Counted from the first letter of the stretch, positions 313-18,310 are shown. The stretch is 64,000 nucleotides of DNA from a virus (IMGVR_UViG_3300036761_001387:3103-67102), one strand, 5' to 3'. Made by a program: numbers and translations. Notes: generated by a model from the letters alone, not told the origin.

Positions 313-722
313 GCCTGACGCGAGCGGAGTTTGAGGCACAGTTCCGTCGGATGAACGGCCCAGCTGCCGAGGAGGCGCTTCTCGCCCACGACGCCGCACA
401 GCGGGCCGAGGTCGCCCGGCTGCGGGGGATCATCCGTCACCTTCTCCCTCTGGCTGCGTTCTGCGCCCCGCCGGACGGGATGGAGTGGGTCAGAATCGCC
501 CGCGAGGCGCTGGAGGGCAAGACGGTCGTTTCCGTTCAAGAAGTCCTCGCCGCGAAGGACGCGGAGTTGACGGCTCTGAACGCTGCGCTCCACGGCTGCG
601 CGATGAAGCTGACGAAGGCCGAGGCCGAGGTCGCCGCGCTGCGGGGGGCGCTGGAGAAGATCGGCAAGAGCGTCATCTGTGACCACGGCAAGACAGCCCG
701 AGCTGCGCTGGAGAAGCCGTGA
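309..722 (+). CDS. Hypothetical coiled-coil protein (repeated AEVAxL / ALExK modules)
   Basis: GTG at 309 coupled to the upstream stop; start revised from track ORF 138..722. Confidence 0.7.
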   Translation: MSLTRAEFEAQFRRMNGPAAEEALLAHDAAQRAEVARLRGIIRHLLPLAAFCAPPDGMEWVRIAREALEGKTVVSVQEVLAAKDAELTALNAALHGCAMKLTKAEAEVAALRGALEKIGKSVICDHGKTARAALEKP

Positions 723-1177
723 GTCCGCGCCCGATCTACGAGAACGCACAGAGCCTCAAGGACGAGCTGGAAATCGCCACTGCCGTTTGCAACCACCTCG
801 GCTGCACGGGCCTCAGGAAGCTCAACCCAATCTCCTACGGCATCGACTTCGCCATCCTCGTCGCGGGTCCGGAAGAGGATGGCGTCTGGTGCCTTCTCGA
901 GGCGAAAGCGCGCAATCGTTTCTACCATCAGTGGATCATCTCTGCCCTGAAGACGGAACGTGCGGCGGGCTTTGGCGCCTCCGGGCTCGCGGTCTATTTC
1001 GCTTGGGGTGCCCGGTCTGGCATCGACTGGGAGATCGATCTCTGGCAGTGGAACCCCAAAGTTCGCACCTTCATTCTCGCCGGCAGGGATGACCGGGGCG
1101 ACGAGGACGACAAGGAACCGTGCCTGCTCGTTCCCCGGAGCCTCTGTGATTCCTTTTCGTACAGGAGAACGTCTTGA
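719..1177 (+). CDS. PD-(D/E)XK-family nuclease-like protein
   Basis: YGIDFAIL...LLEAKARN gives a D...ExK motif; coupled start. Confidence 0.6.
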   Translation: MSPRPIYENAQSLKDELEIATAVCNHLGCTGLRKLNPISYGIDFAILVAGPEEDGVWCLLEAKARNRFYHQWIISALKTERAAGFGASGLAVYFAWGARSGIDWEIDLWQWNPKVRTFILAGRDDRGDEDDKEPCLLVPRSLCDSFSYRRTS

Positions 1178-1476
1178 GCGAACTTCCCGCCAACCCCGAG
1201 GCCGATCATCTCGGCTGGCTCATCGCCCGGATGTCCGCTGCTGCCCTCGGCCACATGAAGCCAGACGAGCCCTACCCCGGCAAGCCGCTCGCCCCCGTCG
1301 AGGAGATCCTGAGGCTCCGGTTCGCGGCCATGACGCTCGCCGAGGCCGTGGCGAAGCGGATCTACGGGGCGACCTTCACGCCGACCGACGTGGACACGAT
1401 CTTCACCGAGGCCCTGAACGAGGCGGCCGAGAAGCTGCCGATTGCCTACGCGAAACCGAAGGAGGACGGAGGCTGA
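1174..1476 (+). CDS. Hypothetical protein
   Basis: AGGAG RBS, TTGA coupling, GC3-rich codons. Confidence 0.65.
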   Translation: MSELPANPEADHLGWLIARMSAAALGHMKPDEPYPGKPLAPVEEILRLRFAAMTLAEAVAKRIYGATFTPTDVDTIFTEALNEAAEKLPIAYAKPKEDGG

Positions 1477-1658
1477 TGTGGACTTGGAGCGTGCTCTTCG
1501 GGATCCTGAATTTTCTCGCAGTCGTCTTTGCTGTGGTGGGCGTAATCGCCATTGGGGCGCTACTGCACATGGGCTGGCAGATCGGCGGCGCCCTGATGAC
1601 GAAGTTCCGGGACTGGCGGGATTGTCATCGCACTTCCTCGTCGCGCTGGCGCTGGTGA
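1476..1658 (+). CDS. Small membrane protein
   Basis: TGATG coupling; long hydrophobic N-terminus MWTWSVLFGILNFLAVVFAVVGVIAIGALL. Confidence 0.6.
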   Translation: MWTWSVLFGILNFLAVVFAVVGVIAIGALLHMGWQIGGALMTKFRDWRDCHRTSSSRWRW

Positions 1659-1755
1659 TTCTTCTGGGCGTTTGCGCTGACTTCTGCGTTCGTCACTGGA
1701 CCGACATCGTCAACGAGGCCGGGCGGGACGGGGCTTCCGCCGAGAGGACTGGGTT

Positions 1756-2001
1756 ATGAAGTTTGAAATCGTCAAGAGCCGCGCGAAGAAGCTGTACACA
1801 CCGGGGGCCACGAAGGGGAAGCTCCAGTACCGCGTTCGGGTGAGAGGCCGGAACGGTCGAATCCTGCTGTCCTCGGAGACTTACAACGCGCGCATCGCCG
1901 CGAGGCGGATGATCGCGCACGTCTCAGCACAGGCACTGTGGACGCGGGTCGTTGATATCGACGAGACCGGCGACAAGCCGAAGAAGAAAGGGAAGCGCTG
2001 A
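1756..2001 (+). CDS. YegP/DUF1508-like small protein
   Basis: KFEIVKS...QYRVRVRGRNGRILLSSETY pattern typical of DUF1508. Confidence 0.7.
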   Translation: MKFEIVKSRAKKLYTPGATKGKLQYRVRVRGRNGRILLSSETYNARIAARRMIAHVSAQALWTRVVDIDETGDKPKKKGKR

Positions 2002-2065
2002 TGTACGAGAAGGGCATGGTCACCATCGCGCCGGCCGACGGGCCGACGCCCGAGAAGGAGAAGAG

Positions 2066-2425
2066 ATGACAGACGAACAGACGGAAGCCGTCCCCGAGAA
2101 AATCGCCATCTCCCGCGACCAGCAGCCCGTCCTGCGCTTTCGCATCGAGGAGACGATCCCGACGATCGAGCTTGTCGGCCAGCCTTCGGGCCATATCCTG
2201 AAGCTCTGGATGAACAAGGCAGCCGTGCTGGCGATGGCGCACGGCCTGATCGACGTCGCGGCCACGATGCCACCCACTCCGGACGGGATCGCCATCCTCC
2301 AGTTCGGCGGCATGAAGATGCCCCGGAACGCCGAGATCAAGGTCGAGAACGCGGCAGACTCTCCGACCCAGATCAGCCCCCTCGTCGGGCCGGGCGGCGA
2401 CCAGATCGTCAAGGTCGTGAAGTAG
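2066..2425 (+). CDS. Hypothetical protein
   Basis: AAGGAG RBS before ATG 2066; GC3-rich codons. Confidence 0.65.
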   Translation: MTDEQTEAVPEKIAISRDQQPVLRFRIEETIPTIELVGQPSGHILKLWMNKAAVLAMAHGLIDVAATMPPTPDGIAILQFGGMKMPRNAEIKVENAADSPTQISPLVGPGGDQIVKVVK

Positions 2426-2426
2426 C

Positions 2427-2780
2427 GTGGGCCGGCCGCGGCAACGGTCCATCGGCGTGGAGTACTTCCTCCCGGCCGATGGGCCGACGGCGGAGAAGAA
2501 GATCGCCCGCTCCGTCATTGCTCAGGCCGGCATCGACGCCACGTCCCGCGACGAGGACATCCGGCTCGACGCGCTTCGCTTCTTTCTCGGGGAAAGCCAG
2601 CCCTGCCGGATCGTCCGGGAGCACTGGTTTATGACCGCGCAGCTCCAGATCCCGGACATCGAGACGCTCAGGGATGGCCTCGCGAATGCCGTGAAGGATC
2701 CAACCGTATCGCGCTGCAAGGCGATCACCGAGGCGTGGGTCGCATGGAGACGCGAGAAGGAACGGAGCGAGGAGAAGTGA
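2427..2780 (+). CDS. Hypothetical protein
   Basis: Operon position and codon bias. Confidence 0.6.
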   Translation: MGRPRQRSIGVEYFLPADGPTAEKKIARSVIAQAGIDATSRDEDIRLDALRFFLGESQPCRIVREHWFMTAQLQIPDIETLRDGLANAVKDPTVSRCKAITEAWVAWRREKERSEEK

Positions 2781-3007
2781 CGTTGCTCTGTCTGCGTTGC
2801 AAGAAGGCCGTGGAGCGTCTCGACTCTGGCACTCTGGCGGAGATCTTCTCGCCCGGCGCGTACTACGTCGCCGGGGAGCGCGTCGTCTGGTGCCCGAACT
2901 GCCGGATCGTCCTCTGCCAGATGGTCGAGACCCGCATCCGCGACGCCGGGGAGGTCAGCCGGCGCTACGTCAAGATGAAGGTGCGGCCCAAGGGCGAGGG
3001 GATCTAA
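2777..3007 (+). CDS. Small zinc-ribbon protein
   Basis: CLRC...CPNC; GTGA coupling with AGGAG RBS. Confidence 0.6.
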   Translation: MTLLCLRCKKAVERLDSGTLAEIFSPGAYYVAGERVVWCPNCRIVLCQMVETRIRDAGEVSRRYVKMKVRPKGEGI

Positions 3008-3483
3008 GCCCTCTGCTCGCGGAGCGCGTCGGCCCGCTCCATGATCGGGTCAACGTACTTCCCGAAGTTGTTCGGCGTCGGGCTTCCGGCGTTGTAGGCC
3101 GAGAGGGCGTCCCGTATGTTCGCGTATCGGCTGATCTTGAGGGCGAGGTGCTGCGCCCCGAGGTCGAGAGCGAGCGCCGGGTTCGCAGCGAGGTCCGCGA
3201 GGAACGCGCCCTTGAAGCCCCGCTCCCGGGCCACCGCTCCCATGATCTGGAGCAGCCCCCACGAGCACATCTGGAGGATCCGCTCCGTCTCGAGCGAGCA
3301 TGGCGCGACGGGCACGACGGCCGAGACGGACGGCCAGAGCCAGCGGTAGCCGGGCTCGTAGCGCACGGCCGACGGGTTCCCGCCGCTCTCCTGAATGACC
3401 TGCGAGACGAGGAGGAACTCGTCGATCCCGTAGCGGTTGGCCGCGTCGGTCACGAGGGCGGTGATGCCGAAGGGCAGCGTCAT
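3004..3483 (-). CDS. Lytic transglycosylase (SLT domain), probable endolysin
   Basis: IQESGG catalytic Glu, SWGLLQIM and ALSAYNAG motifs. Confidence 0.9.
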   Translation of the reverse strand: MTLPFGITALVTDAANRYGIDEFLLVSQVIQESGGNPSAVRYEPGYRWLWPSVSAVVPVAPCSLETERILQMCSWGLLQIMGAVARERGFKGAFLADLAANPALALDLGAQHLALKISRYANIRDALSAYNAGSPTPNNFGKYVDPIMERADALREQRA

Positions 3484-6400
3484 GGGGCGTACGCCGATTT
3501 CGTCGGCCCCTGCTTGATCAGGGCCATCGCCCGCTTCGTCAGGTCGTCGACCACGTCAGGCTTGTACTCCTCGCGCCACTTCGTCCCGCGGAACTTCTTC
3601 ACGAATGCCGGGTACAGTTCCTTCCGCTCGGCGGGCGTAGCGTACTCAAAGGCTTCGACCGCAGCGGCCATCCGGGCCCGCTGGAAGTTCCCGAGATTCT
3701 TGACCTGAGTTGCGGCCTTCTGGATGTCCTTCAGTTCGTGCGGCGGGAGCTTCCCTTCCTTGACGGCGGCGCCGATCTCCTCGCGAATGGTGACGGCGCG
3801 CTCCGTATCGCTTGACTTGATCGCGGCCCGCAGGCGCGACGTCAGGCCGTGGGTGATATCGGCCTGCTTGAGCTGTTCCGTCGTCTTCGCCTCGGTGGGC
3901 GGCACGTTCTCGCGCAGGATCGTCTCCAGCGGCGTGTCCTGCGAGCTGTACGGCCCGCCGAAGAGATTCGGGATCATGGTGTCGGCGAGGACGCGCGTCG
4001 CCGGATGCTCCTCGACCTTCCCCGTCTCCAGCCTTCTGAAGATCGGGTTCGACTGCACGAGCATCGCCTCGGCGATCTTGGATCGGCCGGGCCAGCCCTT
4101 CTCGACGCGCCCGCGAACGATGGATTTCAGGGTCGGCGTCGACCGTCCGGCGCTCGTAAGCGACTGGACGTACGGCTCGGTCCCGAAGAATGCTGCCGCC
4201 ATACGCGCCGGTGGCCCGAGGAACGGGTGGGTCCAGCCGTTCAGCGTGTCGAGCATCGACTGCTCGTCGGCCTTCCAGCCGGGCATCCCCTTCATCATCC
4301 GGTTCTCGATCTGGGAGCGCAGGCCCGTGACGCGCAGCCCGCGGGCGATCAGGGGCGACGTGAACCCGAGGTTGACCCACGCCGTCCGGTCGAGGTTGTC
4401 GCCGTAGATGGCGCGGGCGAGGGCCGTCTGCCGGTGCTCCGGCTTGATGGCGATCTGGAAGAGCCGACTCTCGTCGTCCTCCCAAGGCCACTTGTCGCGG
4501 TAGAGCTTGTTGACGACGGCCCACGTCGCCACGAGTCCCGTCAGGCCGGACATGACCTGCATCGCCCGGTAGCGGTTGAAGGTCTGCTTCGCGAGGCCCT
4601 CGCCTACGGGGAGATGCCCAGCACTCAGCATCCCCGCGATGCCGTTCCAGTTCATCTGGCGGCCCGCCGTGTAGAAGGGCGCCATCCCCGTGCTCTTCGC
4701 CCCTCGCTCGATCCGGCCCTCCGTCTCGAAGACGTAGTTCCCGAGCATCCGGGTGAACTGGAAGCGCTCGTTCGGCGTCATCTCGATCCCGGACTTCTCG
4801 GCGATGTGCTCCCCGATCTTGTCGAGGAGGAGCCGACAGCGAATATCGAGCCCATTCGGACCGAACACGATCGGGGAGAAGTCGATCGGGGAGCGGGCGT
4901 GACCTTTCCCGGCCCTGTCCCTGTGCCACGGAGTCTGAAGGAACGAAACCTTCTCAGCCCCGGTCGTTTCAGCGAGCCTCTTCGAGTACGTCACCGTGCC
5001 AGCGCGGTTCGGGATCTGGCCGTTCTCGACCATCTCCATGTACCGCTCGCTCCACTCCGCCGCCTCCGGCTTGACGGCCATGATGTTCGCGAGTCCCGCG
5101 ACGAACTTCGTCATCGCGTTGGCCGACGCGGCCTTCGAGAAGATGTCGGTCCCGACGATCGGGGCGCGCAGAACCATCGTTCCGACGAGGTTCGCCGTGT
5201 GAAAGACCGCGTCGGTCGGGCCGCCCATCTGGAAGGCCGTGATGAAGTGGAGGATCTTCTGGAACTGGGCCTCCTCGACCTTCGGGTCGCCCGTGAGGAT
5301 CGTGCTCAGTTCCTTCGCGAGCCACTTCGGGACCTCGGCTCGGGCCTGCGGGACCCGGATCAGCTTGCCGTCCTTGCTGATCATCATCGCGATGCCGATC
5401 GGGACGGTCTCGGCCTCGAACGTCTGGCCGCCCCACTTCACGGTCCCCGTGCTGCTCTGGCCCGGGGCGAGCGGCTTCAACAGTCCCTGCGTCTGCAGCT
5501 CGCCGATGAGCCCGCCGCGTCCGTTCAGCCGGATCGAGCGGGCGAGGGAGTTCCGGAGCGCCTCGACACCCGTGTCGTACTGGTCGGACAGGCCGGTCGC
5601 GAAGTTGTTCCCGGGGTTCTTCGGCTTGATCCACGGCGAGCGCTCACCGCGGTAGTCGCGGGGGGCCATCTCCGGAGCCTGCGACAGCGGGAAGTAGGCG
5701 TCCATCGGGCCGAGATGCTTCGAGACGAAGCCCTCGTTCAGCTCGTGCGCGTCGCGCATTGGCGCCTCGAGCAGTCGCTTGTAGATCTCCAGCGCTTTCT
5801 TCACCTCGGGCCGGGCGATGTAGGCCTCGAACTTCTCGTCGTTCGCGAGGACAGCCTCGCCGACGTTGTCGCGCGCCGTCGAGAAGACCTCCTTCAGGAA
5901 GCGCCGGAGCCCCTGCACGCTTTCAGCGATCTGCGCCTTCCGCTCGGCCTCTGTCCCCCTCGTCGCGGACTTCCCCTCGGCGTCGTAGAGCGCCGTAGAC
6001 AGCTCGTCCGGGAGGTCCCTCTCCTCGAATCCGCGTTTCCCGTCGATCGCCGTGATGGCCGTGTCGAACAGGCCGGTCTTGGCCTGCTCGATCAGCTCTT
6101 CCGGGGAGAGCTTGTCGACGTACCCGATCATGTCGGTGTACTTGTCCCGGATCCCGCGAAGCCGGCTCTCGGCCAGAGCCGTGAAGAAGTTCTCGGCGTC
6201 CTTCACGGTGCCCTTCAGCGCCTCGGCGATCTTCGGGACAGCGACCGAGACCATCTTGATGGCCTTCGGCAGGGAGGAGGCGGCCCGGCGTGCCAGTTCG
6301 GCAGCCCTCGCGGAGGCCATTTCGAGCTGGTTCAGGCCGTACCCGCCGAGGATGTCCTTCAGCTCGGCCAGCCGATTCAGCTTGGCCTTCGGCTTGAGGG

Positions 6401-9400
6401 GGTCCCCCTCGACCATGGCCGTGATCCGCTTCCCGAGGGGCGGCTGGGCCATTTCCTCGCCCTTCGTGGCGGGGCCGACGCCCCCCTCCATCCGGACGGG
6501 GGGTGCCGCCACGATCCGGCGGCGGGCGGCAGGCCCGAATTCCGGTTCCCGGGGGGCCGCGGCGGCCTCCGGCGGGGCGATCGGCTCGCGGGCCGGGGCT
6601 GGGGTCTCGGCCGGCGGTCGGGTCTCTACGGGCCTTGCAGCCCGCTCGGCGGCGCGCTCCCGCTCCCACTCCCCGACGTCCCGGACGTCTTCCGGGGGGG
6701 TCTCTTCTGGCCCTACTTCTCCGTACCCGGCACGGGGCTCGGCGGCAAGGGCTGCTGGCCCAGCTTCCGCTTCGGGGCCGGCTCCGCTGGCTCGCTCGGC
6801 TTCGGCGAGTCGGTCTTCCCAGCGGGCTTGGACTTCCCGAACGGCATCACTGGACCGATCCAGATCCGCCCGTAGCTCGGGTGGGATTCCGGTAAGTCGA
6901 CTCTCGTACCCATCGGCCCCTCCTTCGACGAGCCCGCCATCATGGGCCCGCTCGTCGAATGGTACATCCATTTTGCCCGTCGCGCGCTCCGCCGCTGCCA
7001 CTGCCCGCTGACGGAAGCTCTTGAGGACTTCCCTGTCTTGCCCGGCCCATGTGATCGCGCCGATCCCGTGCTCGTCCGGCACGACAAAGCCGTCCAGCCC
7101 GGCCGCCTCGAACTCGTGCAGGAAGGCCACCGCCTCCTCGGGCGTGGGCTTCTTCTCGAACGGGAAGTAGACCGCGTTCGCCTTGTCCGGCTCCAGAATG
7201 CGCCCGGACTGCTTGTCCCGCGCCAGCCTGAAGTAGCAGCCGTAGCCGACGCTGGCCTGACCCAGAGCCTTCCCGACCATGGCGGCGAAGCGCTCGACGA
7301 GCGCCCGAGCCGACGGCTCGATCTCGACAGGCGCACCGCCCGGCCCGGCCGGCATCGAGAGGTAGACGTGCGGGGCTGGGTTCGATTCCCCCTCGTACGC
7401 GCCGGCGTTGATCTCGACCTTCTCGGGCAGCAGGCCGAGCTTCCGCGCCCAGTCGAGAAGAGGGACGTGCTGCAGCGCCTCGTCCGTGTACTGCGCCTTG
7501 TTCTCAGGCGTCGTCCGCTCCAGATAGGAGCGCGGGGGGACCGCTTCCAGCGTGACGCGCCCGCTCTCCCGGGGCGCGAGGTCGGCGAAGTCCGCGCCGG
7601 CCTCCTCGATCGTGGGCTTCGGGCCCACTTTCCCGCCGGCCTCCCACTTCTTCGTGTTCTTCGTCCACTTCTCGTGCGTCCAGAGCGCGGCCTGAACCTG
7701 ATGCGGGCGCCAGTCGTTGCCGAGCTTCTTCGCGATGCGCTCCAGCGTCTTCTCGGCGAAGTCGTACTGGCGCTCGGTCGGCGCGCCCGTCTTGTACCCG
7801 AACTTGTCCATCACGTGGACGTCGACCGTGCTGCCCTGAATGCGGTGCGGGTCGATCTCCACCATGAGGTTCTTGTAGAAGTTGTTCGTCTTCCGGCCTT
7901 CCCAGTTCGCGCCAGCGTCGGCCGCGGCCTGCATCGCCTCGTCCTGCCTGTCCTGCTTGCTGGAATGGATCGGCTCGCCGTTCTTCCACTGGTGGAAGGC
8001 CTGAAGCGCGCGCCGCCAGTTGATCGGGACGGACTCCTGCGGGGACGTGATCGCCATGAAACGGCAGAGGATGCCCGCGTCCTCGACGTCGCCCTGCATG
8101 ATCTTGAGGACGTGCTTGCTGGTCTTCTCGTACCAGAAGCGCCGGGTCTCGGCCGCCTTGGCTTCCTTCGCGAGCTTGTTCTCCCAGACCCTGCGGTCGA
8201 GCAGCGTCTTGAGGTGCTCCGGTGCGCCGTTCAGTTCGCGCGGCCTGCCGCGCCACATATCCTCGTCCCTCTTCTCTCCGACGCCGTAGCCTCCCTCCGG
8301 CTCCGCCACGTGCATGACGGCGGGCTTCTCGCCGTACCGAAGCCCGGCGTCGGGACTCTTGACCGTGAGCCCTTCTGGGATGCCGCGGCCGTTGATCTTC
8401 GCGTCCCGGATCGCGCCTTCCGTCCGGAGGAAGTTCGCGAGGTCGCGGATGTACGCGTCGTACTTCCCCTCCGTTCCGTTGTGGACGAGGAAGACGTTGT
8501 GCGTGCCGTGGTCCGACATCGACTGGACGATGTAGTCACAGATCTTCTCGTACTGCGCGCCTCGGTCGCTGGCGGAGAGCACGAGATCGACCGGAATCGT
8601 CTCGACAGCACGGACGCGGCCGACGATGCTGAGTTGGGGATCGACGTCTCGGCTCGCGTGAACGAGTGTGATGGTTTCGGGGTCGCTGCCGAGCCGTTCT
8701 GCCACTTTCGCCAAGTCGTGATGATCCGCGACCCTCATCCCGAGCCCGATGCGGTTGTCCGTCTCAAGCGCGCGCAGCACGACGGGCTGCTTCACGCGGA
8801 GCGGGAGCATCTCGACGCGGGCCGCGAGCGTGTCGCTGTCCCGACCCGCCTCCGATAGTCGCAGGATCCCGTACGTCTTGTGGTTGATGATGACGTGACC
8901 CTCGAAAGTCAGGTCCGGGGCCGCCTTCCGAAAGGCCTCGTACGCCACCAGCGTCATCCGATGGTCGGCCGGGCTGGGGGTCGGGTCACCCGTCGGGTGG
9001 TTGTGGGTGATCGCGTAGCCCTCGGCGCGGTGCGCGCGGAGCCAGTCGACGACCTCGGCATGATGCTCGGCGAGCGGCACGTCCGCCGCCATGACCTGAG
9101 TCGGGAGGTTCGACGTGATCGCCCACTCGCCGACGATCTCGCCGTCGCGGATTGCGAGGTAGCGGAGGGTCTCGAAGCGACTGTCGCGGGCTACTTGGCC
9201 GACGGTCGCGAGGTCTTCAATGAAGCCTTCGCCTTGCCGGACCTTGAGCCCGACGAGCGAGACGACACCCTTCTCCTGAAGATCGTCGGCAATTCTGGTG
9301 CCGACGGTTCGGGCTCGTAAGTCGCTCTTAAGTGACTGTCGTCTATCAAGCCGTCCACGCAGTTCTTCGATACCTCGTCTGGCAGCGACAGCGGCCCGAA

Positions 9401-12400
9401 GCAGGACACTCTCTCGGACTGCCGGCGCCAGCTCTGGGTGAGCAGCACCCGGCCTTCCCGAACTCGGGAGGGCTTCCGCTCCGAAGAGGTCGAGCGTTTT
9501 CCTGTCACGGGGCGCCTCTACCCGAGCGGACCCTTCGATTTCGCGTGGATGGCCGCGTTCTGCTGCGGCGAGCGGGGTGCCTTGAACCCTTGGTAGGCCA
9601 CCGGGCCCGACGGGGGCTCGAACGAGGGCTCCTTCAACATCGCTGCGTGGTCCGCGGCCATAAGCGCCGGCAGCTTCGGGTTGACCCTCGCGAAGAACGC
9701 CGCCAGTTTCTTGCCATTCGCCATGATGGGTCTCCTTCGCTTTCCGGGCTGCGGCCAGTACCGCGTCGCCTTCGGAGGTATGGTATGTCGCCGTGCGGAG
9801 ATCTTCAAGTCCTTTCGCGACGTCGGCCGCAGAAAGCCCTTCACCCGCCCTTGAGTCGCCGGGGAGGTACCTGATGTCCCCCGTCCCGGCCAGCTCGTTC
9901 TCGGCGCCCCGCATCGCTTCGAGGACCGGGACCTCGGCCTTGCGGGGTAGGTGGTCTTGAACCATCTGGCCGCCGGCGGGCGTGTAGGCCTCGTCCGGAC
10001 CGCGTTTCACGCCCCGCTCCGACATCCGGGCCTGAACGCGATTCGTCGGCGTGAAGGGATCCAGTCGGCCGTTGTAGCGGGAGCGGTCGTAGTCGGCCAC
10101 GACGAGGTGGACACGACCGGATCCGTTCAGGACGGCGATGGCCCGACCGCCGCCCGGGTCTTCGGCGACGATGAGCCGGTACGGTAGCCCGTGATCCGTC
10201 TTCAGCTCCGCCTCGCGAACGCCACTCTTGTCCGGCGCCGAGAGGAGGTGTTGGTTCTTCGCGAACTTGTCGTTCGCTTCCTTGACGAGCGTTGTCCCGG
10301 CTTCGGCCGGAAGCGTCGCGACGACCTTGAACGGCACGGCGTGGTAGTTCGGGTCGGCCTTTGCCTTCGCCTGCTCTTCGCGATGGACGTCGATCTGTCG
10401 GAAGAGCTGTTCTTCCGCTTCGAGACGCGGCTCGATCTCTCCTTCGGCCCAGCCCGCCTCTCTCATTGCCCGCGTGACCCGTTCGTCGTACCGGCCGCGG
10501 GGCTCGGCTACGGTAGGAGGAGCCACGGCCTCGGTGGATTGGACGGGTGGGGTCGTGGCCTGCGGCTCCTCTGGGCGGCGGGCTTCTGGGCGGGCAGCCG
10601 CATTCGGCGGGGCGGCCTCTGCGGGGGTGGGCTCCTGACGGACCGAGGGGATCTCCATCGCCTTCTTCTTGGCGTCCCAGAGAAGCTCCTCGGCGTTCTT
10701 CCTGCTCATCGCGTACTGCTGCCGGAGAGCCTCGGGCGTCACTTCCTCGCCGCCGGCGATGCGCTGGGCGGTCTCGAGGACGCGGCCCTTGTAGCGCCAC
10801 TGCTCGCGGGGTCCGGCGGGGCCGCCTTGCGGCTCCGGGCCCAGCTCGAGCGCCAGCTCGGGCTTGAGCATCGGGAACTCCGCGAGCGGGACGGGCGGGA
10901 ACTGCAGCGGGCCTTCGGCGCCGCGCTCGGCGTTCAGCCCGATCGGAATTGTCGGGCCCTGCGCTTCGACGGGACGCGGTGGCGGCGCTGGGCCGAGCCC
11001 CGTGGCGTCGACTCCGGGCGGCAGCTCGTCGGCGAGATCCGGCCGCTGGTTGGCAGCGATGCCGACGGGCTCGGGCGCGAACTCGAAGCCGTCGGGCGGG
11101 GCGAAAGGCTTCGCCGCGGTCTCCACGTCGAGGGGTTCTTCGCCCGGTGGTCTGCCTTCGAACTGCTGGCGCATTCGCCACTGGTCGTAGAGGTGTTTGT
11201 TTGCTTCGTGTACTTTGGCGCCCTTCTCGTGGAGCCCGGGTACGAATGCCATGTAGGCGCTCGCGAGAATCCCTGAAATCGCAACGCCGCGCTCTTCCGG
11301 CGAGAGGGCGTCCCAGTTCTTCGTCAGATCGGTTAGGCCCTGCGCCGCTCCGACAGCCCCCTCGGCTCCGAAGTAACTCGTGATCGCGGCCGAGACATAG
11401 GGCACGGCTACCGGCGCTGCCGCGGCAACGATCGGAAGCCCGAGCAGGAGCGAGGCGTTCGTCGGCGAGCCAAGCGCGGTGATGAATTCAACCGGCGAGG
11501 CCGCAGCACGACCGATAGTGGTGGCGGCGTCCTTGGGAACGCCGAGCGTTGTCAGGACTCCGGCGACGGCATGGCCCGCCGCGCTCGCGACCGGCTCCGT
11601 GATGGTCTGTTGGTAGGCCTCGTTCCTGCGCCCGATGATCTCCCCGACGCCGCGCACGTTCTTTTCGAGATTTGTCGGGATCGACGTGACGCCCTCGGTC
11701 TGGATCCCTTCCCTTTCTGGCGCAGCCAAGGCCCCGGCCTCATGGAAGCGCCGGACCAGATCCTCGTCTCTCGCAACGAGAGGCTTACCCGGGACGGCCG
11801 GCACCTCCAGCGGCGCACTTTGTGTCGAGGCGATCCCGAACGCGCCGGGGAGAGACTTGATCGCCGTGCCGAGGAGTCCCGGCCGCGAGGCGTTCTCCGC
11901 CTCCTGCTCCTGCTGCAGCTTCGCCAACTCGGCCCTCTTGTCTCTTTGCTCGACGAGCCCACGCGACACGGCCATCAGCGGCTCTGTCGTCACGGGGGCA
12001 ATCTGATCTTGGAGCGCCTTCTTCGCCCGCAGTTGCTTCAGAAGGGCCTGCGTCTTCGGATCGAGCGTGCTTTCGGCGGCCGGATCCGGATTCTCGAAAA
12101 GCTGGTCGAGGGCCTTGGCCGAGAGACTGGTCGCCGCGGCATGGGCCTTCCGCCCCTCGATGATCCCGGGCGACGTAGCGAGTGGCGCCGGAGGGGGCGG
12201 CATGGCCTCTCCCACCGGCTCGTCGGTCGGCATCGCACCCTCGACCGTGGCCTCGAATGCATACTTCGGCGCCCTCGGTTTCTCCGGCTCGGCAAAGTCG
12301 AAGCCCGGCGGAGGGGCGAAGGTCTTCTTCTCCGGCTCGGGCGACGTCGGGTCGTTCGTGTCGGCGAAGTCGAAGCCCGGCGGCGGAGCAAACGATTCGG

Positions 12401-12404
12401 GCAC
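3480..12404 (-). CDS. 2974-aa polyvalent/ejection protein with RadC-like JAB domain and HhH-glycosylase-like domain
   Basis: HNHPTGDPTPSPAD JAB motif at 8964-9005; WY...ITSPQ...GRKTNNFY...TVDVHV...QVQAALW block at about 7680-8140; last gene of the ejection cluster. Confidence 0.8.
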   Translation of the reverse strand: MPESFAPPPGFDFADTNDPTSPEPEKKTFAPPPGFDFAEPEKPRAPKYAFEATVEGAMPTDEPVGEAMPPPPAPLATSPGIIEGRKAHAAATSLSAKALDQLFENPDPAAESTLDPKTQALLKQLRAKKALQDQIAPVTTEPLMAVSRGLVEQRDKRAELAKLQQEQEAENASRPGLLGTAIKSLPGAFGIASTQSAPLEVPAVPGKPLVARDEDLVRRFHEAGALAAPEREGIQTEGVTSIPTNLEKNVRGVGEIIGRRNEAYQQTITEPVASAAGHAVAGVLTTLGVPKDAATTIGRAAASPVEFITALGSPTNASLLLGLPIVAAAAPVAVPYVSAAITSYFGAEGAVGAAQGLTDLTKNWDALSPEERGVAISGILASAYMAFVPGLHEKGAKVHEANKHLYDQWRMRQQFEGRPPGEEPLDVETAAKPFAPPDGFEFAPEPVGIAANQRPDLADELPPGVDATGLGPAPPPRPVEAQGPTIPIGLNAERGAEGPLQFPPVPLAEFPMLKPELALELGPEPQGGPAGPREQWRYKGRVLETAQRIAGGEEVTPEALRQQYAMSRKNAEELLWDAKKKAMEIPSVRQEPTPAEAAPPNAAARPEARRPEEPQATTPPVQSTEAVAPPTVAEPRGRYDERVTRAMREAGWAEGEIEPRLEAEEQLFRQIDVHREEQAKAKADPNYHAVPFKVVATLPAEAGTTLVKEANDKFAKNQHLLSAPDKSGVREAELKTDHGLPYRLIVAEDPGGGRAIAVLNGSGRVHLVVADYDRSRYNGRLDPFTPTNRVQARMSERGVKRGPDEAYTPAGGQMVQDHLPRKAEVPVLEAMRGAENELAGTGDIRYLPGDSRAGEGLSAADVAKGLEDLRTATYHTSEGDAVLAAARKAKETHHGEWQETGGVLREGQPEAAGAYGRGPRSDVEGALVRAPVGPGGLPRVQGTPLAAAERGHPREIEGSARVEAPRDRKTLDLFGAEALPSSGRPGAAHPELAPAVRESVLLRAAVAARRGIEELRGRLDRRQSLKSDLRARTVGTRIADDLQEKGVVSLVGLKVRQGEGFIEDLATVGQVARDSRFETLRYLAIRDGEIVGEWAITSNLPTQVMAADVPLAEHHAEVVDWLRAHRAEGYAITHNHPTGDPTPSPADHRMTLVAYEAFRKAAPDLTFEGHVIINHKTYGILRLSEAGRDSDTLAARVEMLPLRVKQPVVLRALETDNRIGLGMRVADHHDLAKVAERLGSDPETITLVHASRDVDPQLSIVGRVRAVETIPVDLVLSASDRGAQYEKICDYIVQSMSDHGTHNVFLVHNGTEGKYDAYIRDLANFLRTEGAIRDAKINGRGIPEGLTVKSPDAGLRYGEKPAVMHVAEPEGGYGVGEKRDEDMWRGRPRELNGAPEHLKTLLDRRVWENKLAKEAKAAETRRFWYEKTSKHVLKIMQGDVEDAGILCRFMAITSPQESVPINWRRALQAFHQWKNGEPIHSSKQDRQDEAMQAAADAGANWEGRKTNNFYKNLMVEIDPHRIQGSTVDVHVMDKFGYKTGAPTERQYDFAEKTLERIAKKLGNDWRPHQVQAALWTHEKWTKNTKKWEAGGKVGPKPTIEEAGADFADLAPRESGRVTLEAVPPRSYLERTTPENKAQYTDEALQHVPLLDWARKLGLLPEKVEINAGAYEGESNPAPHVYLSMPAGPGGAPVEIEPSARALVERFAAMVGKALGQASVGYGCYFRLARDKQSGRILEPDKANAVYFPFEKKPTPEEAVAFLHEFEAAGLDGFVVPDEHGIGAITWAGQDREVLKSFRQRAVAAAERATGKMDVPFDERAHDGGLVEGGADGYESRLTGIPPELRADLDRSSDAVREVQARWEDRLAEAERASGAGPEAEAGPAALAAEPRAGYGEVGPEETPPEDVRDVGEWERERAAERAARPVETRPPAETPAPAREPIAPPEAAAAPREPEFGPAARRRIVAAPPVRMEGGVGPATKGEEMAQPPLGKRITAMVEGDPLKPKAKLNRLAELKDILGGYGLNQLEMASARAAELARRAASSLPKAIKMVSVAVPKIAEALKGTVKDAENFFTALAESRLRGIRDKYTDMIGYVDKLSPEELIEQAKTGLFDTAITAIDGKRGFEERDLPDELSTALYDAEGKSATRGTEAERKAQIAESVQGLRRFLKEVFSTARDNVGEAVLANDEKFEAYIARPEVKKALEIYKRLLEAPMRDAHELNEGFVSKHLGPMDAYFPLSQAPEMAPRDYRGERSPWIKPKNPGNNFATGLSDQYDTGVEALRNSLARSIRLNGRGGLIGELQTQGLLKPLAPGQSSTGTVKWGGQTFEAETVPIGIAMMISKDGKLIRVPQARAEVPKWLAKELSTILTGDPKVEEAQFQKILHFITAFQMGGPTDAVFHTANLVGTMVLRAPIVGTDIFSKAASANAMTKFVAGLANIMAVKPEAAEWSERYMEMVENGQIPNRAGTVTYSKRLAETTGAEKVSFLQTPWHRDRAGKGHARSPIDFSPIVFGPNGLDIRCRLLLDKIGEHIAEKSGIEMTPNERFQFTRMLGNYVFETEGRIERGAKSTGMAPFYTAGRQMNWNGIAGMLSAGHLPVGEGLAKQTFNRYRAMQVMSGLTGLVATWAVVNKLYRDKWPWEDDESRLFQIAIKPEHRQTALARAIYGDNLDRTAWVNLGFTSPLIARGLRVTGLRSQIENRMMKGMPGWKADEQSMLDTLNGWTHPFLGPPARMAAAFFGTEPYVQSLTSAGRSTPTLKSIVRGRVEKGWPGRSKIAEAMLVQSNPIFRRLETGKVEEHPATRVLADTMIPNLFGGPYSSQDTPLETILRENVPPTEAKTTEQLKQADITHGLTSRLRAAIKSSDTERAVTIREEIGAAVKEGKLPPHELKDIQKAATQVKNLGNFQRARMAAAVEAFEYATPAERKELYPAFVKKFRGTKWREEYKPDVVDDLTKRAMALIKQGPTKSAYAP
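6713..6913 (-). CDS. Putative nested gene (+1 frame) inside the polyvalent protein gene, 66 aa
   Basis: AAGGAGG just upstream of ATG 6913; GC3-rich codons in this frame while the host frame shows AGT/CGA/CTT/GGA/CCA. Confidence 0.55.
   Translation of the reverse strand: MGTRVDLPESHPSYGRIWIGPVMPFGKSKPAGKTDSPKPSEPAEPAPKRKLGQQPLPPSPVPGTEK
9518..9724 (-). CDS. Putative nested gene (+1 frame) inside the polyvalent protein gene, 68 aa
   Basis: GAAGGAG-N8-ATG 9724; MANGKKLAAFFARVNPKLPALM with genome-typical codons. Confidence 0.6.
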   Translation of the reverse strand: MANGKKLAAFFARVNPKLPALMAADHAAMLKEPSFEPPSGPVAYQGFKAPRSPQQNAAIHAKSKGPLG

Positions 12405-12405
12405 G

Positions 12406-13866
12406 CTACTTCACCGACACCCACGTTCCCTTCGTCGCGTCGAATCGCATCGGGGCCATCGCTCCCGTCTTCTTGTCGCGCATCATCGCTACGTCGCCGT
12501 TCTTCGGCGGCTTGCCGGCCGCAAAGTCTTCTTTCGTATAGTTCGCCGTGGGCGGCGGCGCCGCGGGGCCTTCCGGCTGCGGCTTCGGCGCGAACGGTGC
12601 CGGTTTGCCCGCCTGAGTGACGTGAAAGTTGAAATCGCCAACGATCCGGTCCCTGATCTTGGTACGCATCTCGTCCTGCTCTTCGGGCGTCGCCGTCGAG
12701 CCGAGGCCGGATTCCCACTTCTGGTAGGCCCGCTCGGTTTCCGCGACGATCGCGGGGGTGACCTTCTCGTCGAAGCCGGCCTTGGGCTGCGTCTTTTTCC
12801 CGCCGCCCCCCAAGCGCGTGAGCGCCATCTTCCCGGTCGTCGGGTCTTTCATAATGACCGACACGTTGCCGTCGTTGTCTACGATCGGCTGGCCGACCGC
12901 CTGTGGGGTCGTCTCCTTCGCCGGCTGCTTCGGTCTGAACGGCACGTCGGCCGTTTCCGGCACTCCGGCGAACCCGGTATCGGGCATCGGGCCCTGCGCC
13001 GTGTACTCCTGCGTGGCCTTGATGACTTCCTGCCGCTGGGTGACCGGGTTGAAGAAGGTGGCCTCGCCGTTCTCGTTGAGCTGCTCCTTCCCGGGCACCA
13101 TCGCGGCAGCCTTGGCCTTGGCGATCCTCTCCGCCGAGTCCGCGTGGATTCTGGCCGCCTTTTCGCGGTCGCTCTCCGGCCTAAGACCGAGATCGATCTG
13201 CTGGCCGCCACGAGTCATCTGCACCCGGTGCGTCCCGTCCGACCTGACGACGTCGAACGTCTTCCCCATCGGTTCGGTCGACCTCCGGTTGTCTTCGTAC
13301 TCGGCCTGACGGGTCAATTCGTTCCGTTCGGCCAGAAGGTCGCGCATCTTCATCGATTGCTGATACCGCGAGCTGGAATTACTGAAAAGACCGGCGATCC
13401 CTGACACCAAGCTGCCAGCGGAGCGCTTTTCCTCCGCGATCTCCGCATCGATGCGACTCACGGCGTCCCACGCCGGGCTTCTCGGCCTGTCCGGGGCGGC
13501 AGCCGCGTCTCCGTAGTCGTTCGGACGCTCTGGACTCGAGGCGGGGGGCTTTTCTCCCCTCACACCGGCCGGATCCGGCTCAGGGGCGTTCCCGGCCGAG
13601 GCGATCTTGTCGGGAACCGCTTGGGCAGCGCGCTCCGGCTCGTACCCGGGCTCATACGGGCTCACGTTACCCGAAAAGCCGCGCCGATCCGACGATCCAG
13701 TGCCCTCTCTTGCGAGTTGCTTCTCCAAAGCGACCTTGTAGGGCGATGGCTGCGGGTCCGCGACATCATCCGGCTCGAAAAGCTGGTACGGAGAGCCCGG
13801 ATAGTCCTCGTCCATGATCCCGCTGAAGGGACCCTGCATCCTGAAGGAGTTCCCGATCATGGTCAT
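12406..13866 (-). CDS. Putative ejection (DNA transfer) protein
   Basis: Largely disordered with coiled coil; directly upstream of the giant protein. Confidence 0.55.
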   Translation of the reverse strand: MTMIGNSFRMQGPFSGIMDEDYPGSPYQLFEPDDVADPQPSPYKVALEKQLAREGTGSSDRRGFSGNVSPYEPGYEPERAAQAVPDKIASAGNAPEPDPAGVRGEKPPASSPERPNDYGDAAAAPDRPRSPAWDAVSRIDAEIAEEKRSAGSLVSGIAGLFSNSSSRYQQSMKMRDLLAERNELTRQAEYEDNRRSTEPMGKTFDVVRSDGTHRVQMTRGGQQIDLGLRPESDREKAARIHADSAERIAKAKAAAMVPGKEQLNENGEATFFNPVTQRQEVIKATQEYTAQGPMPDTGFAGVPETADVPFRPKQPAKETTPQAVGQPIVDNDGNVSVIMKDPTTGKMALTRLGGGGKKTQPKAGFDEKVTPAIVAETERAYQKWESGLGSTATPEEQDEMRTKIRDRIVGDFNFHVTQAGKPAPFAPKPQPEGPAAPPPTANYTKEDFAAGKPPKNGDVAMMRDKKTGAMAPMRFDATKGTWVSVK

Positions 13867-13875
13867 AGTCGCCCC

Positions 13876-15036
13876 CTATCTCGGTTTCACGGTCGTCGAC
13901 GCGCCTTCCGTGTGATCCTCGCGACCCTGCTTGAGAATCGCGTCCTGAGCGGCCTGCTGCGCCGCCTGCTGCTGCGCGGCGAGCTGGGCGAGCGTCATCA
14001 GGCCCTGCGCGCCCGTCGTCTTGCGCCCGAAGATGTTCTGGCCGAGATTCGTGAGCCCGCTGGCCGCCGTCGCGGCCTTCCCGATCTGCTGCGCGTTCTG
14101 TCCTGCCTGAGAAGTGATGCCGAACTGCTGCCGGTTCGCCGCGATGCCAGCGACGTCTCCGGTTCCCCTGAGCCCCGCCTCTTTCTGGCGCTCCCGCTCG
14201 TTGAAAATGTCGATCGTGTTTTTCCGCGCGGCGTCCGTCATGGCCCGCGAGGCGTCACGGGCGAGCCCGACGCCTGAAACGGCGCTCGCGAGCGGGTTAT
14301 TCGTCGACGCGGCGAGCCTCGAGGCCCTTTCGCGCTCGACGCTGAAGGGCGTAGCGGCCGTTTCGAGCGCGATCCCGGTCAGCGCCTGCTTCGTGGCAGC
14401 GTCGAAGCCGCCGTTTTCGATCATGTCCTGATATTTCTTCCTCAGGAGCGACTCGTCAGCGCCAGAAGTCGTGCCGTAGGTGCCCGTTTGCTTGTAGAGC
14501 GCCTGCTCCTGCGCGTTCGGACCGGAAGCGAGTTCCGCGAGGGTCTTCCCGGCCTTCGTGTCGTAGCCGCTTTCCGGGTTCGTGATGAATCCGCGCAGGA
14601 CATCGAGGAGCCCGGGCGCGCCACCGGCCGCCGGAGCGGGCCCGGGCGCGGGGGCTGGCACCGGACCGCCAGCCGGAGCTGGCGGGGGAGTCTGTGAGAT
14701 GGCCGGAGCGGGCCCGGGCGCGCTCCCGCCGGGCACAGTCGCCGTGGTCCCGCCGACAGGGGGCCCCAGCCTCATGCTGACGCCCTTCGCGGGCGGGTTC
14801 GGAGGTGCGGTGCCGGGGCCGGGGGGCGGGGCGGGAGGGGGCGCCGCAGCCTGTCTCTGGGCTACTACCTCTGGCGGCCACTGATCCTGCGACGGCTCGG
14901 GACCGGGCCCCATCCACGCCCACTGACCGGACGTCTGCTTCTGCCAGCCCTGAGCGGAATTGGTCGCAGGGGTCGGGGAGGGACGCGGCTCCGTCTCTTC
15001 TGGATCGAGCTGATATCGGCTGACGTTGTACATCAC
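13876..15036 (-). CDS. Putative ejection protein, Pro-rich N-terminus and Ala/Gln/Gly helical C-terminus
   Basis: AAGGAAGG RBS; composition like podovirus pilot proteins. Confidence 0.55.
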   Translation of the reverse strand: MMYNVSRYQLDPEETEPRPSPTPATNSAQGWQKQTSGQWAWMGPGPEPSQDQWPPEVVAQRQAAAPPPAPPPGPGTAPPNPPAKGVSMRLGPPVGGTTATVPGGSAPGPAPAISQTPPPAPAGGPVPAPAPGPAPAAGGAPGLLDVLRGFITNPESGYDTKAGKTLAELASGPNAQEQALYKQTGTYGTTSGADESLLRKKYQDMIENGGFDAATKQALTGIALETAATPFSVERERASRLAASTNNPLASAVSGVGLARDASRAMTDAARKNTIDIFNERERQKEAGLRGTGDVAGIAANRQQFGITSQAGQNAQQIGKAATAASGLTNLGQNIFGRKTTGAQGLMTLAQLAAQQQAAQQAAQDAILKQGREDHTEGASTTVKPR

Positions 15037-15045
15037 ATCCTTCCT

Positions 15046-16221
15046 TTAGAAGAGGTACATCCAGTTCGCGTTGGTTGTACCGCCTCCACCACCAACGCCA
15101 ACGCCGAGACGTCCGCCAACGCCGCCGCCGCCCGGACGCTTTATCCTCGGCTGCCTCGTGATCGGATCGACCTCGGTCTGGGTTTCGTCGGGCGGAGGCG
15201 TCGCCGCGCCGTCTGTCGGGCTGGGGGGACGGAAGAGCGACACCGCTGGCCGCCCCGCGCCGGGACCCGGATGCGCCGGGTCACCCGGGCCACCGCCGGC
15301 CGGAGGATTCGGAGGAACGTCCGGCGGCGCCGGAGGCGGCGTCGTGACGGGAGGGGTCGTCAAGGGCTTGTTCCCTGCCCCGTACAGAACGTCGTCGAAG
15401 ATGTTCCCGAACTTGCTGGCGCCCGCCTGATGACCCTGCAGCGCGAGATCGAACGGACTCCCCGGCTGGATCTGGCCGGTGTCGCCGAGGTACGTCTTCG
15501 TGTTCTTCGACTGGCCCTTCGTGTAGCTCGTGCCGCCGAACAGGCCCTTGGCCGCGTCGAGCAGCGCCTTCATGGTGTCGCTGGAGGAGCCCTTGGACGA
15601 GCCGCCGCCGCTGCTCCCGCCGCCGCCGCTCCCGGATGGCGTGACTGCTTTCGGGGCCGCCTTCAAAGGTTGTCCGGTGACCGGGTTGGTCACAACCTTC
15701 CCGTCCCTCGTGACCTGCCCCTTCTCGTTCACGCCCATCGTCCCCTCGTCGACCGGGCCCTGCGGCTCGTTCGCGTTTACCGTCCACTCGCCGGTCTTCG
15801 AATCGAGAGAATGGACCGTGCCCCACGCATCGACGTACTTGTATCCACCATCGGCGCCGTAGCCGTAGTATTCCTTCCCGGTGGGCGCGTCGTCTCTCCA
15901 GTTCCCCGTGTTCTCGTCGAGGTAGTGCTTCCCGTTCGCGTCCTCGTAGAAATAGAGGCCGTTTGGGTCATAACCATATCCGCCCCCGCCCGTGTCGTCC
16001 CCAAACACAAGCGGGTCCCCATTCTCGTCTACGTCGGGCAATCCTCCGGGAGTGTAGTCTCCCGGATCCCAGCCGATCGGCTCGTCGCCCGGCTGCCATG
16101 GCCCGAAAATATCCCCCGGATCGCCGCCGCCGCCGGGATCTGGGTCCGTGAAATCAATCGGCCAGTCGCCGCCGCCGCCGGGATCCTCGTCGAGCCAGTC
16201 GCCTTCTTCGTTAAAGCCCAT
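15046..16221 (-). CDS. Low-complexity Asp/Gly/Tyr- and Pro-rich protein, probably virion-internal
   Basis: GGAGG RBS before ATG 16221. Confidence 0.6.
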   Translation of the reverse strand: MGFNEEGDWLDEDPGGGGDWPIDFTDPDPGGGGDPGDIFGPWQPGDEPIGWDPGDYTPGGLPDVDENGDPLVFGDDTGGGGYGYDPNGLYFYEDANGKHYLDENTGNWRDDAPTGKEYYGYGADGGYKYVDAWGTVHSLDSKTGEWTVNANEPQGPVDEGTMGVNEKGQVTRDGKVVTNPVTGQPLKAAPKAVTPSGSGGGGSSGGGSSKGSSSDTMKALLDAAKGLFGGTSYTKGQSKNTKTYLGDTGQIQPGSPFDLALQGHQAGASKFGNIFDDVLYGAGNKPLTTPPVTTPPPAPPDVPPNPPAGGGPGDPAHPGPGAGRPAVSLFRPPSPTDGAATPPPDETQTEVDPITRQPRIKRPGGGGVGGRLGVGVGGGGGTTNANWMYLF

Positions 16222-17251: not shown

Positions 17252-18310
17252 TTATGAGGTGCCAGCGGCACCGGGCGTTTGGTTGATTGCGGCCGTGATG
17301 GGCTTCTTCCGCGGATCGTACAGGTCAGCGCCCTGTTGCTGGGCCGTCGAACGCATCGTGCTGGGCCCACGCGCCCCGGTCGCCCATGCTGGCGGCGTGG
17401 GCGCCGAAGCGCCGGGCGCGCTGCCCTGCAGCGTTCCGGGATTCGTCGGCTTCGACACCGTGACGGCTGGATTCGTGGCCTGCACGGGGTTCGTCGGAGC
17501 CGTGTAACCCGGACCCGGCGTATAGGACATCGCCCCGCTGCCAGCCGGGGCCGTGGGCTGATTCGTCGCGCCGGCCACGGCCGTGTTCTTCAGCGTCTGG
17601 ACGACGTTCGCGTTGTTCTGGATCGCCTCGGCCGGAGCGGCCGTGGCGGGCGGCACCTCCTGATCGACGATGGGCGTGGTCGAAGCCGAGGCATCCTCTT
17701 GTGTCCCGTACCCCAACGAGCCACCGGCCGTGGATTGCGCGCCAGCATCGCCGGCAGCGTTCGGCCCAGAGACGGCCGCGGGCTTGCCGCCGGTCGCCGT
17801 CGTCTGGTACTGCTGCATCTTCTGGGTCGCATAGTTCGGGTCGCTGGCGACGGACTGCTTAAGCTGATCCATCGTGCCGGAACCGATATTTGCGAAGCTG
17901 GTCTTCGCGGCATCGGCCCCGTTTCCCTTCCATGTCTGCCCCGGAGCCGAGGCCGGCATCGCGCCCCGCAAACCTTCATCGTGCTTGGCTTGAATCATGT
18001 CCCATGCGGTTAGCCCCATGCTGTACCCGCTCTCGATGTAGTCGGCGTAGTATTTCGCCTTCTCCGCGGGCGTGCTCCCGGGGAGGTGGTCAATGGCGCT
18101 CATGGACGGCGAGGATGACGTCATCGCCAGAAACTTCAGGGGGTCGTTCCCGGCGCGCGCCATGATCTCCTGCGCGATAAGGGCGTCATAGCCGGCGCCC
18201 TGAACGGCGGCCCGCTGTTTACCCCAGCCGGTAGACGAAGCGCTGTTTGCGGCCGTCTGTGGACGGCCCTCCTGAGTCAGCTTTCGCCTCCGGTTGATGA
18301 CGTTGTACAT
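17252..18310 (-). CDS. Protein with N-terminal helical domain (paralog of 59596..60054) and Ala/Thr/Pro tail
   Basis: AGGAGG RBS; manual alignment to 59596..60054. Confidence 0.7.
   Translation of the reverse strand: MYNVINRRRKLTQEGRPQTAANSASSTGWGKQRAAVQGAGYDALIAQEIMARAGNDPLKFLAMTSSSPSMSAIDHLPGSTPAEKAKYYADYIESGYSMGLTAWDMIQAKHDEGLRGAMPASAPGQTWKGNGADAAKTSFANIGSGTMDQLKQSVASDPNYATQKMQQYQTTATGGKPAAVSGPNAAGDAGAQSTAGGSLGYGTQEDASASTTPIVDQEVPPATAAPAEAIQNNANVVQTLKNTAVAGATNQPTAPAGSGAMSYTPGPGYTAPTNPVQATNPAVTVSKPTNPGTLQGSAPGASAPTPPAWATGARGPSTMRSTAQQQGADLYDPRKKPITAAINQTPGAAGTS

Follow-up and report, generated by a model that had tools for sequence, protein, structure and literature searches.

The question raised by this locus is whether a single, very long viral gene also carries smaller genes that are read in another frame of the same strand. 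The window, as we call the whole 64-kb stretch analysed here (IMGVR_UViG_3300036761_001387:3103-67102, part of a 67-kb IMG/VR virus record with an estimated completeness of ~52%), contains a giant open reading frame (ORF) of 2974 codons, the product of which appears to be a polyvalent-type virion protein. A sequence-only reading of the window had pointed to two short ORFs, n1 and n2, located in the +1 frame of the giant ORF, and had interpreted them as overprinted genes for inhibitors or chaperones of the protein blocks encoded just upstream. Our results suggest, with a probability of about 0.68, that n1 and n2 are genes for small proteins which lie, in the +1 frame and on the same strand, within the gene for the giant virion protein. 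The case is strongest for n1, which is very probably a real nested gene given its Shine-Dalgarno (SD) motif and ATG, its codon usage, 2 small homologs and the analogous nested genes in relatives; n2, for which the SD motif with ATG and the codon usage constitute the support, is probably a real gene too, a judgment we make with less confidence.

Start signals and codon usage of the nested ORFs

The coordinates, frame offset and putative ribosome-binding sites (GAAGGAG and AAGGAGG) on which the sequence-only reading relied were all borne out; the spacers between the motifs and the respective ATG codons are listed in Table 1. Both ATGs are at offset 1 of the long frame, and the complete ORFs lie wholly inside the giant ORF on the same strand, with the stop-to-stop +1 ORFs extending over 9518..9844 (n1) and 6713..7336 (n2). 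Further in-frame ATGs are present upstream of the n2 start at 6967, 6943, and 6940, all without an SD motif. The giant gene contains 79 ATG triplets (60 in frame, 16 in the +1 frame, and 3 in the +2 frame), and a strong SD motif at a distance of 4 to 10 nt precedes 2 of these, which are exactly the starts of n1 and n2. In the window as a whole, the pattern AAGGAG-N4-10-ATG was observed 16 times versus 1.82 ± 1.34 times expected from shuffled sequences, a 9-fold enrichment that none of 100 shuffles reached, and 19 of the 22 sites combining an SD core of at least 6 nt with an ATG open ORFs of at least 60 aa. Thus, the combination of SD motif and ATG marks real starts in the phage represented by the window. 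The predicted mRNA structure around the n1 start is weaker than that of 85% of windows and average in the case of n2, and a scan of positions 6400-10100 yielded 0 promoters and 0 terminators.

Codon usage changes frame at the same positions. The GC contents of the 3 codon positions (GC1/2/3) are 0.69/0.48/0.85 for the whole giant gene, 0.62/0.50/0.88 for n1 and 0.60/0.58/0.86 for n2 when read in the nested frame, whereas the main-frame GC3 drops to 0.50 over n1 and 0.58 over n2. When the main-frame protein was kept fixed and synonymous codons were resampled, these values corresponded to z scores of −8.7 (n1) and −7.0 (n2), compared to 0.3, −2.2, and −0.4 for 3 control linkers of the giant gene. 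The frame-specific difference in GC3 described previously, with genome-typical codons in the nested frame and low GC3 in the long frame, is therefore beyond chance. In a codon log-likelihood (LLR) model trained on the rest of the giant gene, the +1 frame exceeded the main frame by 0.84 for n1 and 0.37 for n2, whereas the null distribution from 257 windows was −1.36 ± 0.41, with a maximum of −0.44. The +1 frame scored best only at ~9750-9515 and ~6950-6715, which are the limits of n1 and n2. The main frame stays open across both ORFs, and its translation, consisting of G, A, P, E, and R for 0.67-0.68 of the residues and of hydrophobic residues for 0.17-0.18, corresponds to an interdomain spacer, in agreement with the linker-like character that had been attributed to it. 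With the main-frame protein fixed and codons resampled according to the low-GC3 usage of the two stretches themselves, an SD motif with ATG opening at least 50 codons arose with P = 0.041 in the stretch around n1 and P = 0.015 in that around n2.

Other readings of the same region were considered and rejected, namely an antisense gene across n1, with the frames of the plus strand scoring lower, and read-through of the TAG codons, the continuation past the stop being garbage-like. The tRNA scan found 0 genes, and hence no suppressor tRNA that would point to TAG recoding.

The giant ORF itself is not an error of a single assembly, because the same protein, differing only by V/M at residue 1, has been recorded from other contigs. 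Its assignment as a polyvalent-type protein is based on its length in a virus record, its RadC/JAB and DUF7178 domains, and the presence of ART-PolyVal, LPD38, and Zeta_toxin domains in its relatives. Distant giant relatives share the domain at aa 665-882, the DUF7178 region and the C-terminal module of ~1,000 aa; among them, SNF2 and methylase domains are also found, and no methylase or helicase domain was detected by Pfam in the giant protein of the window. The NCBIfam matches to RadC were below the cutoff. The block preceding n2 had been labelled glycosylase-like, a label that received no support, as the only Pfam domains in the giant protein are DUF7178 and RadC/JAB. The main-frame motif TLDLFG is found within ~10 codons past a nested stop both in the window (~9500-9483) and in the related locus L003 (stop at 9122), and may mark the start of the next module.

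Table 1. Coordinates of the giant gene, its domains, and the nested ORFs in the window.
Feature	Position	Strand	Remarks
Giant ORF	3480..12404	−	2974 codons (8925 nt), GTG start, TGA stop; polyvalent-type virion protein (putative), host frame of n1 and n2
Main-frame domain, aa 665-882	9759..10412	−	5' of n1; shared with giant protein P0003; no family match
SD-like motif of n1	9732..9738	−	GAAGGAG, 7-nt spacer to ATG 9724
n1	9518..9724	−	68 aa; ATG 9724, TAG 9520-9518; +1 frame of giant ORF
Low main-frame GC3 around n1	9261..9860	−	wider than n1
RadC-like JAB core, aa 1114-1178	8871..9065	−	in module downstream of n1; PF04002, E 4e-7, 30.4 bits versus cutoff of 22.1
DUF7178 domain, aa 1414-1577	7674..8165	−	in block upstream of n2; Pfam, E 1.2e-6, 29 bits versus cutoff of 27
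SD-like motif of n2	6919..6925	−	AAGGAGG, 5-nt spacer to ATG 6913
n2	6713..6913	−	66 aa; ATG 6913, TAG 6715-6713; +1 frame of giant ORF
Low main-frame GC3 around n2	6681..7010	−	
Conserved C-terminal module of ~1,000 aa, aa 1974-2945	3570..6485	−	starts ~80 codons past the n2 stop

Homologs of n1 and nested genes in distant relatives

A HMMER search with n1 against 1.84 billion protein representatives returned 3 matches. We disregarded one of these, the repetitive 1135-aa protein P0011, as spurious, which leaves two small proteins: P0012, with 86 aa and 54% identity (E 1.7e-5), and P0013, with 66 aa and 47% identity (E 3.2e-4). Both were predicted as proteins in their own right, on contigs of 5.5 and 2.4 kb. 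The alignment of P0013 begins at the first residues of n1, and 20 columns are invariant. An AlphaFold model built on the alignment of the three sequences contains two N-terminal helices, with pLDDT values of 76-85 over the first 30 residues and low confidence for the remainder; besides the helices, the family shares a conserved proline/glycine-rich motif. No match to n1 was found in Pfam, PHROGs, or NCBIfam, and the ESM Atlas provided no usable match. Gene callers forbid genes within genes, so that proteins of this type are absent from databases; n1 is indeed missing from a collection of 5.8 billion proteins in which the giant protein is present.

Close relatives of the giant protein were not detected in scans of viral and metagenome contigs or by tblastn against phages, and the contigs compared with the window were identical to it, leaving no variants for frame comparison; the sequencing runs found were three DNA runs and no RNA run. 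A plasmid search with the giant protein gave 2 matches, both to the JAB region, and the match on a Nitrosomonas plasmid has no small gene in front of its JAB gene. Distant relatives were collected from IMG/VR through the C-terminal module, and 15 of their giant ORFs were scanned by frame. Coding segments in the +1 frame were flagged in 11 of the 15; the remaining 4 are low-GC loci (0.41-0.54 GC), where the frame scan has little power. One flagged segment, in L002, shares 60% identity over 40 aa with a small stand-alone ORF in Aeromonas phage 1233. Another, in L014 (6972-7622) and in the +1 frame of a 3956-codon ORF, encodes a 217-aa DUF559 (endonuclease-like) protein with a match above the cutoff (E 2.8e-12). 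The chance that the host ORF would be open through this DUF559 gene is 0.006 with the nested protein fixed. Furthermore, a TnpV-like family, F1, is nested at 5 loci as well as in Pseudomonas phage Itty13, and a weaker family, F2, is common to 6 loci. The relationship of F1 to TnpV is suggested by PF14198, which matches one member below the cutoff (E 6e-5), and PHROG 938 matches 2 of the 5 members. By these sequence similarities, the flagged segments in the relatives are real genes. An AlphaFold model of the nested peptide of L009, made from the single sequence, was all-helical and not informative (pLDDT 56.3).

Comparison of the two frames in these loci suggests that the conserved one is the nested frame and that the giant frame is merely kept open. 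Within F1, similarity is found in the nested frame for 8 of 10 pairs (E 2e-19 to 2.4e-4) and in the main frame for 1 of 10 (E<1e-3), and in F2 the corresponding numbers are 4 and 0 of 15 pairs. The main frame is open across every nested ORF of the relatives, for which the chance, with the nested proteins fixed, is 0.001-0.43 per ORF; with the longest open run chosen at each locus, the product amounts to 8e-11 over 10 ORFs and 6.5e-16 over 11 more. F1 genes always end 0-16 residues before a conserved methylase-like module (43-72% identical), and the region upstream of them varies.

The member of F1 in the cultured Pseudomonas phage Itty13 (107 aa, 8633-8956 in L023, complement 7000-7323 in NC_070969.1) is nested in the +1 frame of a long ORF (at least 4112 codons), the main-frame GC3 of which is 0.50 over the nested ORF versus 0.90 overall. 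L023 is the reverse complement of positions 1-15955 of NC_070969.1, with the long ORF at 3619-15954. At this region, RefSeq lists three antisense 'hypothetical proteins' (gp01-gp03) on the opposite strand, with GC1 values of 0.87-0.94; tblastn and the codon-position GC contents (0.69/0.46/0.90) support a single ORF of at least 4112 codons. The giant ORFs, of 1537-4269 codons, are nearly free of cysteine, with 0 Cys codons in L013, L015, and L021, 1 in L016 and L020, 2 in L017, and 5 in L014. Several of the nested peptides contain cysteine.

Order of origin and alternative explanations

If n1 and n2 are genes, ribosomes that start at the giant gene's own start codon would read through them in frame 0, whereas others would load at the internal SD motifs (GAAGGAG and AAGGAGG), initiate at ATG 9724 or ATG 6913 in the +1 frame and stop at the TAG codons, producing proteins of 68 and 66 residues. 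The sequence-only reading was probably right in regarding the small ORFs as genuine, separately initiated genes overlapping the giant one; the direction that it assumed for the overprinting is not supported. The small frame has genome-typical codons, separate small homologs, and conservation in relatives, so that it looks like the older of the two, with the disordered linker of the giant protein being the younger, overprinted reading. The codon-usage criterion for overlapping genes likewise designates the linker as the younger frame (Sabath et al. 2012, PMC3494269), since young overprinted frames deviate in codon usage from their genome and proteins that originate de novo by overprinting are, in the same source, mostly disordered. 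Such linkers may have arisen by reading through the small genes in the −1-shifted frame, in which GC-rich DNA has few stops; out-of-frame read-through would then be one way in which polyvalent proteins could accrete neighbouring modules. We propose only tentatively, and as something we hold to be less probable than its opposite, that polyvalent proteins of GC-rich phages and mobile elements grow in general by this stop-poor read-through of small genes.

Several observations weigh against n1 and n2 being genes, or against their being old. The n1 family has 3 members only, a profile search having again recovered just P0012 and P0013; no relatives of n1 were found in viral, metagenome, or genome contigs, or in any of 5 relatives' records, and its AlphaFold model is only moderately confident (mean pLDDT 67.8). 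Protein searches revealed no homologs of n2, which also has no family match in Pfam, PHROGs, or NCBIfam, is proline-rich and of low complexity, and has an LLR margin below that of n1. P0003, the nearest giant relative, aligns in the main frame across aa 883-951, and an n1-like peptide is impossible in the +1 frame of its linker, as enumeration of all back-translations gave a best score of <38 compared to a background maximum of 41 and a positive control of 217; n1 is accordingly not shown to be old at its site in the giant gene. An open +1 frame is to be expected from the linker composition, being retained in 83% (n1) and 53% (n2) of codon resamples. It is unremarkable because stops in the +1 frame can arise only across main-frame NTA or NTG codons, which specify hydrophobic residues, and linkers contain few of these. 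In the window alone, an open main frame across the nested ORFs is not rare either (P of 0.42 and 0.39). Low GC3 is not confined to n1 but continues for 136 nt on its upstream side and 257 nt on its downstream side, and in these flanks none of the frames is favoured. A collagen-like Gly-X-Y stretch at 21421-21002 (minus strand, ORF 20729-22201) displays the same low main-frame GC3 with an LLR higher in the +1 than in the main frame, and it contains neither an SD motif with ATG nor a nested gene, its main frame being plainly real. Because the same switch occurs there, codon evidence by itself is not specific for a nested gene, and the stretch can usefully serve as a negative control when this genome is scanned by frame. 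Finally, the nested +1 ORFs of the window and relatives end with TAG in 16 cases, TAA in 5, and TGA in 0 (n = 21; window, L002-L004, L009, L013-L017, L020, and L021), a count that leaves out one flagged L003 segment at the 5' end of its run, which ends with TGA, and to which the Itty13 ORF would add one further TAA. Ordinary frames of the window end with TGA in 30 cases, TAG in 7, and TAA in 5 (n = 42). Given the local base composition, the nested pattern is the one expected of chance stops; old nested genes would leave it unexplained.

Two further observations concern GC3 along the window. The flanks of n1 (9261-9517 and 9725-9860) have main-frame GC3 values of 0.40-0.73, and the upstream part is conserved at the protein level with P0003. 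Other short internal GC3 dips in gene-like frames are located at 1943-2122, 17350-17559, and 28085-28294.

Several of these points can be accommodated by the assumption that n1 and n2 are by-products, with the linkers using A/T-ending codons for reasons of the giant gene itself (slowed translation between its domains, for example, or coding of low complexity, as the collagen-like gene has), and with the +1 ORFs and the SD-like purine runs being accidental and yielding no functional proteins. The collagen-like stretch, the openness of the +1 frame in resamples, the stop codons that follow local composition rather than ordinary stop usage, the lack of n2 homologs and the extension of low GC3 past n1 are all in line with this assumption. 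It leaves unaccounted for the two small homologs of n1, one of them with the same start position, the location of the SD motifs at exactly 2 of 79 ATGs, which is improbable even under the codon usage of the dips, the normal GC3 of three other linkers in the giant gene, and the +1 ORFs of relatives with homology at the Pfam level or to stand-alone proteins; we consider it unlikely. Somewhat less likely still is that n1 and n2 are relics, that is, independent genes swallowed by a recent gene fusion and no longer of use to the phage, as could be argued from the inability of the equivalent P0003 linker to encode an n1-like peptide, from the lack of close relatives that would show maintenance, and from the open main frame not being improbable for the window alone. 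Yet the start codon, SD motif, and full length are intact in both n1 and n2, and one nested family has been kept across giant proteins in which the adjoining module is only 43-72% identical, which argues for long-term maintenance.

The role proposed by the sequence-only reading, in which each nested protein is the cognate inhibitor or chaperone of an effector block just upstream, is improbable. Its support is positional, each ORF being located at a domain boundary, and co-translation from one mRNA would fix the stoichiometry of effector and antidote. By contrast, neither n1 nor n2 matches an antitoxin, immunity, or chaperone family in Pfam, PHROGs, or NCBIfam, PADLOC not having been searched, and the upstream blocks are not recognised toxins, the one before n1 having no family and the one before n2 being DUF7178. 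The sole enzyme-like domain near n1, RadC/JAB, is encoded downstream, the nested genes of relatives are a mixed set (TnpV-like, DUF559 endonuclease-like, and a common small phage protein), and F1, the position of which is conserved, stays with the downstream module as the upstream region varies. Since the position of the nested genes in relatives is conserved relative to the downstream module, the analogy points to that module, rather than to the upstream block, as the partner of n1 and n2, if there is one. Programmed +1 frameshifting, which would yield truncated isoforms, made of the N-terminal part of the giant protein and a tail from n1 or n2 up to the TAG, and dispense with internal initiation, would be compatible with the +1 frame, which has no stop in the 94 codons before the n1 ATG or in the ~300 codons before that of n2. 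However, the +1 coding signal begins at the ATGs and not upstream, the alignment of P0013 begins at the first residues of n1, and the SD motifs are at the usual spacing, making frameshifting extremely improbable.

Small genes initiated from their own SD motifs in the +1 frame are thus the reading that we prefer for n1 and n2. Should this layout be as widespread as it seems from the relatives, a class of small proteins would be concealed at the domain boundaries of giant proteins from phages and conjugative elements, and polyvalent proteins would have a concrete mechanism of accretion, with linkers derived from out-of-frame read-through of small genes. If the growth of these proteins by read-through is true, a swallowed gene would provide a ready-made disordered linker and still be active from its own ribosome-binding site, and the linkers would be a systematic reservoir of unannotated small genes, n1 and n2 included, the output of which would be coupled to the giant gene's translation and which may act together with the following module. 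In practical terms, the nested genes would be lost unnoticed if giant genes of this kind were recoded or codon-optimised. The analogous nested ORF in the cultured phage Itty13 makes the idea directly testable.

Comparison with known systems

The closest parallels are the F1 genes of the relatives, which are also complete small +1 ORFs with their own SD motifs, on the same strand as, and coextensive with, a disordered linker, both frames being kept open in the gene for a giant multi-domain protein. Unlike them, n1 and n2 are not TnpV-like, as judged from the lack of a Pfam match and an hhalign probability of 0.2% between the n1 family and F1 (0.1% between n2 and F2), so that they belong to neither family; the nested peptides of the window showed no homology to the nested peptides found in the relatives. 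Furthermore, the giant protein of the window has no detected methylase-helicase module and contains two unrelated nested ORFs.

In phage lambda, the longer spanin gene Rz encloses the whole of Rz1, which is on the same strand in the +1 frame and has its own start, and the two products are functional partners in lysis. The same-strand, +1 embedded architecture of n1 and n2, with their own start signals, resembles this arrangement, but the host gene of the window has 2974 codons and encodes a virion protein, in which the part under the overlap is not a folded domain but a spacer. In Bacillus subtilis, comS is a short regulatory ORF located out of frame within srfAB, a giant multi-domain gene, and has a role in competence. 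The short out-of-frame ORF inside a giant multi-domain gene is common to both cases, whereas srfAB is a bacterial chromosomal gene.

Polyvalent proteins of phages and conjugative elements have been proposed to grow by accreting solo modules (Iyer et al. 2017, PMC5512222). The host protein of the window, giant, multi-domain, and with a RadC/JAB domain, and its relatives with ART-PolyVal, LPD38, and Zeta_toxin domains fit the description of this group; nested or overlapping genes are not part of that description in the main text of the paper, and a published account of genes nested in the linkers of polyvalent proteins was not found in the literature searched, supplements being outside its scope. 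Overprinting in viruses, as treated in the accounts by Sabath et al. 2012 (PMC3494269) and Pavesi 2021 (PMC8227390), likewise combines one genome-like frame with an atypical one that encodes a disordered peptide. In the classic cases, a new small gene originated within an old one, whereas the present evidence suggests that it is the linker of the large gene that came to be read over an older small gene.

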